A stretch of 61,946 bases of DNA, the filler included, from Dugesia japonica (taxonomy: Eukaryota): the NCBI GenBank assembly GCA_001938525.1. It is 5 parts of 5 records of this genome, joined end to end, with 100 filler letters (N's around TTAATTAATTAA, not from the genome) between each part and the next. Parts side by side here need not be neighbours in the genome. Positions count along the whole stretch, not along the records: positions 52,270 to 61,946 come from MQRL01614532.1; 4 more parts are not named here. The stretch is one strand, 5' to 3'. Positions 60,292-60,720 of the stretch are shown here, piece after piece. A program made the translations under genes and the position numbers. The first letter of the stretch is position 1. Every line of letters begins with the position of its first letter. The notes below the pieces were generated by a model that was given only the letters and a program-made list of their open reading frames with translations, made no database searches and was not told the origin of the DNA.

Positions 60292-60720
60292 ATGATAACT
60301 AATTTTAATTACAGAGTGAAGTGTCGCAAGAAGTTACAAAGAAAATGAGCTTTCCTATAGGCAAACCATATGAATTTCATGTCAAAAAAGACGAATATAT
60401 AATTATATTCTTCAGATCAGGAAAATGTAGAATAATGGATTGTAAGAAACCATTGGAACTGCATGATTTGACCCCATATGATATAAAGAAGTTACAATTA
60501 CAATCGCTCATAATTCTCGTAAATATAAGAGTTAAAATAAATCTGCATAAATTAGCAAGAATAGTCAACTTTTGGTTCGAATCAGAGTTATTTCCTGCTC
60601 CAAGACTTGTAAAATATGACCCTTTATTTGTAAATGTGTTATCAACCANAAAACTAATAATACTAAGGCTTCAAAATTTATATTTTTAGGAATATATGGA
60701 TAACATTAATTCATAATTGT
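60292..60720 (+). pseudogene. TBP-like protein, copy B (122-codon open frame plus a frameshifted 5' end)
   Basis: MITNFNY.../...IIFFRSGKCRIMDCK...LQLQSLIILVNIRVKINLHKL...FESELFPAPRLVKYDPLFVNVLSTxKLIIL. Confidence 0.78.

Follow-up and report, generated by a model that had tools for sequence, protein, structure and literature searches.

A broken compact TBP gene of a Maverick/Polinton clade in Dugesia japonica, and a likely late transcription factor among its intact relatives

The described systems closest to the gene analysed here are the cellular TBPs (eukaryotic TBP/TRF and archaeal TBP; PF00352), the TBP mimics of beta- and gamma-herpesviruses (KSHV ORF24 and EBV BcRF1), the TBP-like proteins of Nucleocytoviricota, and the Maverick/Polinton elements (Polintoviricetes, adintoviruses). 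According to the available text of PMC7221094, the Glu pair E186/E188 of TBP serves in TFIIB binding, and the basic surface of the N-lobe binds TFIIA, TAF1, Mot1/BTAF1 and Brf1/2. The herpesvirus mimics, as the accessible part of PMC12529657 describes them, use host Pol II and a variant TATA element, TATTWAA, before late genes; ORF24 is a multi-domain protein of ~750 aa that belongs to a six-protein complex, keeps all four intercalating Phe, is given there as being without the acidic TFIIB-binding residues, and binds directly to Pol II. The TBPs of Nucleocytoviricota have a viral TFIIB as their partner, and C.L3.2, the first Glu, is retained in ~40% of them (PMC7221094, available text). Vertebrate Mavericks have the gene order INT-mCP-PW-MCP-PRO in the part of PMC8097293 that describes it.

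The window, that is, the whole stretch of 61,946 nt from Dugesia japonica, is an AT-rich eukaryotic scaffold with many N gaps. It holds two TBP-like copies, copy A on the plus strand and copy B on the minus strand, whose intact relatives form a family. Judged by its residues, this family is a divergent group within the TBP fold. It has in common with cellular TBP the predicted two-lobed saddle, the TFIIB glutamates, three intercalating Phe, N69 and P191, and differs in the loss of the fourth Phe (F99) and of N159, in a polar DNA face and in the absence of the basic N-lobe helix surface. By analogy it can be likened to the herpesvirus mimics, since both are viral TBP-like proteins with polar residues at V122, T124, V161 and L205 and a variant TATA before late genes (PMC12529657, Table 1 and accessible text), but it is not one of them: the family is a bare core of 150-170 aa with the TFIIB site kept, and its function, drawn from sequence and context, is putative. 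With the Nucleocytoviricota proteins it shares a viral TBP fold and an eroded N-lobe signature (PMC7221094, available text; BFVD matches), whereas the first Glu is kept in 92% of the family. Its loci share PolB, A32 ATPase, rve integrase and protease with Mavericks/Polintons in general and the gene order given above with those of vertebrates. We put the probability at about 0.7 that the stretch under study is a broken compact TBP gene of a Maverick/Polinton clade whose intact protein is likely the late transcription factor of the element.

The two copies and the element remnants around them occupy the following positions in the window.

60292..60752 (end approximate), plus strand: copy A, broken compact TBP-like gene, found by homology, start taken at the ATG at 60292
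60351..60368, plus strand: FPIGKP of copy A, in place of the repeat-1 stirrup, with no intercalating Phe
60582..60596, plus strand: SELFP of copy A, the repeat-2 (TFIIB-side) stirrup
59688..59917, minus strand: packaging ATPase fragment, head-to-head with copy A (tblastn E 5e-17; the family has a Pox_A32 match)
59195..59338, plus strand: PolB fragment (tblastn E 1e-11)
59167..59205, minus strand: two ATAAAC sites that precede the putative penton gene
58060..59133, minus strand: putative penton (minor capsid) gene, decayed (tblastn; label inferred from gene order)
58085..58090, minus strand: CATAAACA site that precedes the PW-like core gene
57868..58017, minus strand: PW-like putative core gene fragment (tblastn E 5e-17; label inferred from gene order)
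56028..57662, minus strand: putative major capsid gene, decayed (tblastn E 1e-40; label inferred)
39570..40012, minus strand: copy B, broken compact TBP-like gene, with five stops and a frameshift near 39854
40110..40728, plus strand: packaging ATPase, decayed, head-to-head with copy B; upstream TAAACA only, not the full motif
41038..41043, plus strand: TATAAACA site, upstream of a PM-like gene (41048-41341)
41310..41350, plus strand: two YATAAACA sites, upstream of the integrase
41418..42203, plus strand: rve integrase, decayed (Pfam rve E 1.5e-5; tblastn)
42127..43308, plus strand: putative penton end (ATAAAC at 42280) and PolB fragment

Copy A is interrupted by a frameshift near 60315 and by stops at 60687 and 60714, contains one N at ~60651, and has lost 4 of the 16 near-invariant columns of the family; with Pfam TBP it scored 20.1 bits (E 5.6e-4), below the curated cut-off of 22.9. 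Its nearest intact relative, P0001 (150 aa, 66% identical), was its sister in the tree, and the end branch of copy A was 0.41 compared with 0.063 for P0001, as decay would give. Copies A and B are pseudogenes of a TBP-like protein of ~150 aa inside decayed Mavericks/Polintons, and any function therefore belongs to the intact relatives. The initial annotation had placed its feature at 60321..60689; the motifs are present there, but the interval is the longest open piece of the pseudogene and only a part of the gene that runs from 60292 to ~60752. As it had described, a (P/S)ELFP motif is present in both copies (SELFP in A, PELFP in B), the YNPKRF stirrup is found in neither, and the linker is much shorter, with 21 residues between the equivalents of G125 and Q158 against 33 in canonical TBP. 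The IF-x-SG strand attributed to both copies is whole in copy A but interrupted by a stop in copy B. FPIGKP, which had been called conserved, occurs in copy A, copy B and P0001 but in only 1 of 131 family rows, so it is not a motif of the family, which in this region retains the Pro (120/131), often with Phe and a following Gln/Met. In two RNA runs labelled with the same species, 20 and 306 reads fell on 5 kb, on both strands, with 0 and 2 of them at 99% alike, counts that without a host-gene control say nothing firm on expression.

Both copies lie head-to-head with an ATPase remnant, amid integrase, capsid-like and PolB fragments; no protease fragment was found in the window. Two DNA runs searched with positions 56000-61000 gave 8,750 and 8,855 contigs, and the summed depth over the TBP-like gene exceeded 1e5, compared with 17-53 for locus-specific contigs; the sum is no copy number, but with the thousands of contigs it points to many related copies. 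Further decayed Maverick PolB pieces were seen at 30519-32677 (+) and 50321-51642 (-), which makes at least three or four element remnants in 62 kb. The window also contains remnants of Ty3/Gypsy-like retrotransposons (RT, RNase H, integrase zinc finger) at 5160-8312 (-), 22656-25058 and 60883-61760 (+), one of which begins directly 3' of copy A, and host genes, namely a SET-domain exon with Pfam E 1.4e-22 at 27915-28397 (-) and, at 34213-38238 (+), dynamin-like GTPase exons with weak matches. Near-identical tandem duplicates flank N gaps at 59778-59934 / 59985-60141 and at 50970-51352 / 51506-51888, possibly as assembly artefacts.

A search with P0001 of a library clustered at 50% gave 471 representatives at E<=1e-3, the weaker of which include ordinary TBPs, and 111 at 1e-10. 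The set used for family analysis contained 156 full-length members (database proteins and genes from loci), or 131 after reduction at 80% identity. Intact members exceeded the curated 22.9-bit cut-off of Pfam TBP (PF00352), with 47.2 bits for P0001, 65.2 for L008 and 56.7 for L060. Judged from its coding sequences, the intact family is under purifying selection: dN/dS was 0.10-0.24 in 10 of the 14 independent close pairs with a value (17 pairs in all), and 0.34, 0.5, 0.59 and 1.0 in the other four, three of which are near-identical pairs. In a quick tree, a 99% branch separated the family from 8 outgroup TBPs, cellular and other viral; the long forms lay nearer the outgroups, and the support of the short-form clade was weak (82-83%).

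Genomic context was taken from the best 80 of 125 metagenome matches to the family. A Maverick hallmark gene was present in 40 of the 80 loci and in 28 of the 36 loci of at least 3 kb. The recurrent neighbours were the ATPase (27 loci), integrase (16), putative penton (15), PLA2-like protein (15), putative major capsid (10), PolB (8) and protease (7), and Pfam confirmed DNA_pol_B_2, rve with chromodomain, Pox_A32, Peptidase_C5 and Phospholip_A2_4 among them, including a protein-primed PolB (L060, DNA_pol_B_2 E 2e-21), an A32-like packaging ATPase (L008, Pox_A32 26.7 bits, cut-off 22.8) and an adenovirus-type protease (L044, Peptidase_C5 E 1e-7). For the putative major capsid, a profile matched a 400-aa protein of insect type weakly but over its full length (E 5e-5); the putative capsid and penton proteins had no Pfam or PDB sequence match, and their labels rest on size and gene order. 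Identity of the neighbours with the PM, PW and PZ proteins of vertebrate Mavericks was rejected, as the positional counterparts of those proteins are other neighbours. Pfam gave no match to TFIIB or RNA polymerase among the neighbours scanned (37, 26 and 50 proteins, the last set being 50 of 88 listed, plus one), on partial contigs where most neighbours match no Pfam family at all. Among viral contigs, P0001 and the ATPase and capsid alignments found nothing, and the family alignment found one canonical, NCLDV-like TBP (L001), which was excluded from the motif counts. The loci also carry KilA-N, RING and E2-like accessory genes, and tRNA genes were seen in 3 of 21 loci scanned (tRNA-Ile, L054:3449-3523, between the TBP and ATPase genes; tRNA-Cys, L060:5518-5589; tRNA-Asp, L062:10601-10684).

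Residues of the family were compared with canonical TBP in yeast numbering, transferred via a plant-type TBP core (P0150) with motif anchoring, the register of the repeat-1 stirrup being uncertain by 1-2 residues; DNA-facing positions were taken from Table 1 of PMC12529657. The TFIIB-binding Glu pair was kept (E186 in 121/131 members, E188 in 128/131), in line with the initial annotation, which had the TFIIB stirrup retained. Three intercalating Phe were kept as well (F116 129/131, F190 129/131, F207 130/131), whereas the fourth, F99, was lost, with Pro in the F99-anchored column in 120/131 (register +/- 1-2) and an aromatic residue in columns 24-26 in only 16/131. N69 was kept in 112/131 and P191 in 117/131, while N159 was replaced by S/T in 129/131, so that the paired Asn N69/N159 of canonical TBP is not kept. 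Across the rest of the DNA face, V122 was changed to R in 128/131, T124 to M in 130/131, V161 to T/S in 130/131, L205 to N in 130/131 and V71 to N in 99/131.

The predicted model of P0001 (pLDDT 97.6) aligned 149 of its 150 residues to yeast TBP 66-240, with Z 13.4, an rmsd of 2.6-2.8 and ~20% identity in the structural alignment; a profile search of the PDB matched repeat 2 only. In repeat 1 of this model, helices 1 and 2 are 5 and 7 residues long and strand 2 does not form; in repeat 2, helix 1 has 7 residues, strand 2 is present and helix 2 has 17. The model of the long-form member L060 (pLDDT 94.4), whose intact gene is at L060:9995-10501, keeps strand 2 and has a helix 2 of ~15 residues. 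The segment from strand 1 to the stirrup has 22 residues in the short form against 30 in canonical TBP, and the subfamily of the window is ~25 residues shorter than cellular TBP. The intact compact protein is thus predicted to be a whole two-lobed saddle with a trimmed N-lobe, not one that is half lost, and the shortening of repeat 1 looks like a derived state of 84 of the 131 members, those of the window included. The asymmetric reduction that had been proposed is therefore real in the short forms, but it trims a complete saddle and does not extend to the whole family. The loss of the basic helix surface was borne out, with a net charge of the N-lobe segment of +1.1 in the short and -1.8 in the long form against +7 in canonical TBP.

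Since a changed DNA face predicts a changed site, the upstream regions of the genes in the loci were examined. Within 120 nt upstream of packaging and putative structural genes of TBP-bearing loci, ATAAAC was found at 107 of 120 genes, compared with 11.3 expected from dinucleotide shuffles and 3/120 in antisense; it was the top 6-mer in an unbiased count, with the consensus YATAAACR. By late class, it preceded the ATPase in 23/23, PM-like genes in 16/17, integrase in 11/15, penton in 12/15, PW-like in 6/6, capsid in 10/10, protease in 3/5, C3 in 15/17 and PLA2 in 11/12; the motif was first seen at the ATPase, and the other eight late classes (84/97) were grouped after viewing the upstream regions. 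In other classes the counts were 4/10 for C10, 2/9 for C11, 2/17 for C2, 1/3 for C30, 0/3 for C31, 1/3 for PolB, 0/5 for C13, 1/8 for C14, 1/5 for KilA, 1/6 for C20 and 1/4 for C21. A leucine-rich-repeat gene (L011:1918-3327 and relatives) had the late motif in 5/5 loci. Upstream of the TBP gene itself, ATAAAC was found in 7/60 (4.1 expected) and TATAWAWR in only 20/60 (6.2 expected). Of the 29 canonical boxes ahead of TBP, C13 and C14, 21 had a TCAYW Inr at 24-32 nt, against 7 of 105 late sites. In the elements of the window, the late motif is kept before the PM-like, integrase, PW-like and penton genes, partial before the ATPase of copy B and absent before the capsid gene.

The geometry of the motif is that of a TATA box and not that of a terminator or initiator, as indicated by its distance from the ATG (at least 31 nt in 97 of 107 sites, bar two boundary cases at 28 and 32, with a sharp onset at 31 and a peak at 31-55), by the 44 of 107 sites inside the upstream CDS, and by its near-background frequency (21/194 regions) after stops without a following late gene. 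The motif departs from TATA at position 7, which belongs to the half in which host TBP requires Hoogsteen pairing of C-G; according to the available text of PMC4402545, host TBP takes TATAAAC only by flipping C-G pairs to the Hoogsteen form. The crystal of the C(-25) TATA variant (PDB 1qn3) showed that host TBP can bind TATAAAC. In TBP, it is at TATA positions 7-8 that the second Phe pair intercalates (PMC1935006, accessible part). C at position 7 was found in 109/131 late sites, 2/30 early sites and 1/20 control sites. We take the second Phe pair to be that of repeat 1; if so, the most-changed lobe would read the changed base. At L114, presumably the leucine that would clash with a C-G pair, the family retains Leu, Ile or Val, so this position does not account for the reading of C7. 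The altered DNA specificity that the initial annotation had listed among its options is likely. Short and long forms alike have the rebuilt DNA face and the matching promoter motif, so the specificity change, rather than the shortening, is on these comparisons the defining trait of the family. Shortening as the cause of the change was rejected, since the motif preceded 40/46 genes in short-form and 43/46 in long-form loci.

Co-occurrence of gene and motif was compared with that in other Mavericks. Nine TBP-less insect-type Mavericks, picked by integrase, had no match to the family and the motif in 0/41 upstream regions, and TATAWAWR was present at all 9 of their ATPases; the contigs behind these 41 regions, 9 in number, are partial and related and belong to a different Maverick group, and the counts ignore ancestry. 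As the controls are related and few, both gene and motif could be no more than markers of one clade. L091 and L106, which match weakly and are no Mavericks, and L095 and L096 (same contigs as L086 and L090) were left out of the control counts. TBP was found in two of 12 loci picked by ATPase or PolB. One of them, L092, picked by ATPase, carries an intact compact TBP gene at L092:10246-10695 and the motif at 7/8 late-class genes. The other, L093, encodes a symmetric host-like TBP (L093:11568-12122, minus strand; 185 aa, 124.7 bits) with the repeat-1 Phe kept, and has the motif at 1/6 genes and TATAAAA, TATAAAG or TATATAAG words instead; this TBP represents either a second capture or the ancestral state. 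In L094 (7.9 kb) no TBP is present and 0/4 genes have the motif; L104, with the same gene order, has no TBP match in 12.3 kb and the motif at 3/7 genes. A weak match to a PC4 coactivator-like protein, below the cut-off, was seen at L104:11376-11885 (minus strand; E 0.0034). L092, L093 and L094 are Maverick contigs filed within bacterial MAG records, where they were probably mis-binned.

TATAAAC could also be a promoter common to the whole clade and recognised by host TBP or some other factor, with the viral TBP as an accessory, whether as a booster or as a competitor of host regulators. The crystal of host TBP on the C(-25) variant, the motif at L104 where TBP was not detected and the phylogenetic clumping of the controls are consistent with this. 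Against it stand the near-invariant non-host residues across the DNA face and L093, which has a host-like TBP and no motif at the homologous positions. Canonical TATA with Inr is used, and the motif avoided, by the TBP gene and two further small genes. We consider this explanation unlikely. The protein could instead be a decoy that sequesters host TFIIB or blocks host promoters, shutting off host transcription, the motif being unrelated. The TFIIB stirrup is indeed its most host-like segment, and the loss of one intercalating Phe and of N159 would weaken canonical TATA binding; a decoy, however, would need no invariant rebuilt DNA face with three Phe kept, and the motif co-occurs with the gene. 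This makes such a role quite improbable, and the sequestering of TFIIB, which had been suggested earlier for the protein, is disfavoured by the same DNA face and the promoter element that matches it.

If the elements were virophage-like, motif and TBP would serve the TFIIB and polymerase of a helper giant virus. A viral TFIIB is the partner of most other viral TBPs (PMC7221094, available text), and no RNA polymerase was found among the neighbours scanned, yet the canonically spaced host-type TATA and TCAYW Inr of the early genes speak for nuclear Pol II, the host-type Glu pair is kept and no helper evidence was seen in the loci, which makes dependence on a helper very unlikely. A poly(A) or termination signal, or an initiator, was considered for the motif, which resembles AATAAA and the poxvirus TAAAT; the sites within the preceding CDS, the background level after stops and the sharp distance onset led us to reject the poly(A) reading, and this whole class of explanation is highly improbable. 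Finally, the broken state of both window copies and the many N gaps might suggest that the host TBP gene was duplicated and one copy decayed, or that the assembly is at fault. The intact family set apart by the 99% branch, its metagenome loci, the Maverick neighbours and the thousands of related contigs in two DNA runs contradict this; a host TBP pseudogene was rejected, and the chance of either is close to negligible.

A late transcription factor of the element thus remains the preferred reading. Host TBP/TFIID would transcribe the viral TBP gene early, from canonical TATA and Inr. The viral TBP would then bind TATAAAC through its rebuilt, more polar DNA face and recruit host TFIIB and Pol II for late genes via the kept glutamates. 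Without the basic N-lobe surface, it may escape control by TFIIA, TAF1, Mot1/BTAF1 and Brf1. It is on balance rather probable that this Maverick/Polinton clade runs its own late transcription in such a way, by a captured TBP that was reprogrammed to YATAAACR, stripped of the host regulatory surface and plugged into host TFIIB and Pol II.

The system is real and apparently undescribed, and the copy in the window is dead. By term look-up in the available text of PMC8097293, PMC11161782, PMC10120064, PMC11131425, PMC12220804, 10.64898/2026.06.19.733378 and 10.64898/2026.10.13.758929, no TBP was found among described Maverick core genes, and no promoter motif; outside subscription journals and Repbase, no literature was found that describes a TBP family of Polintons or a promoter with TATAAAC. 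The accessible part of Starrett 2021 (PMC8502044; preprint 10.1101/697771) has a 'TBP' gene label in a figure legend on MELD viruses with adintovirus-like PolB, and that figure and the supplement of the paper may show this family.

The finding bears on how Mavericks/Polintons express their capsid genes and on whether a helper virus is needed. If true, the proposed scheme would be evidence for these elements as autonomous nuclear viruses with an early/late cascade, and the protein would be a one-protein counterpart of the six-protein late complex of herpesviruses and the smallest orthogonal TBP-promoter pair seen. The family also offers a natural experiment on TBP specificity, with a bare core, a probably changed base preference at TATA position 7 and, unlike other viral TBPs, the TFIIB site kept. 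In decayed elements, the motif may be used for annotating late genes.
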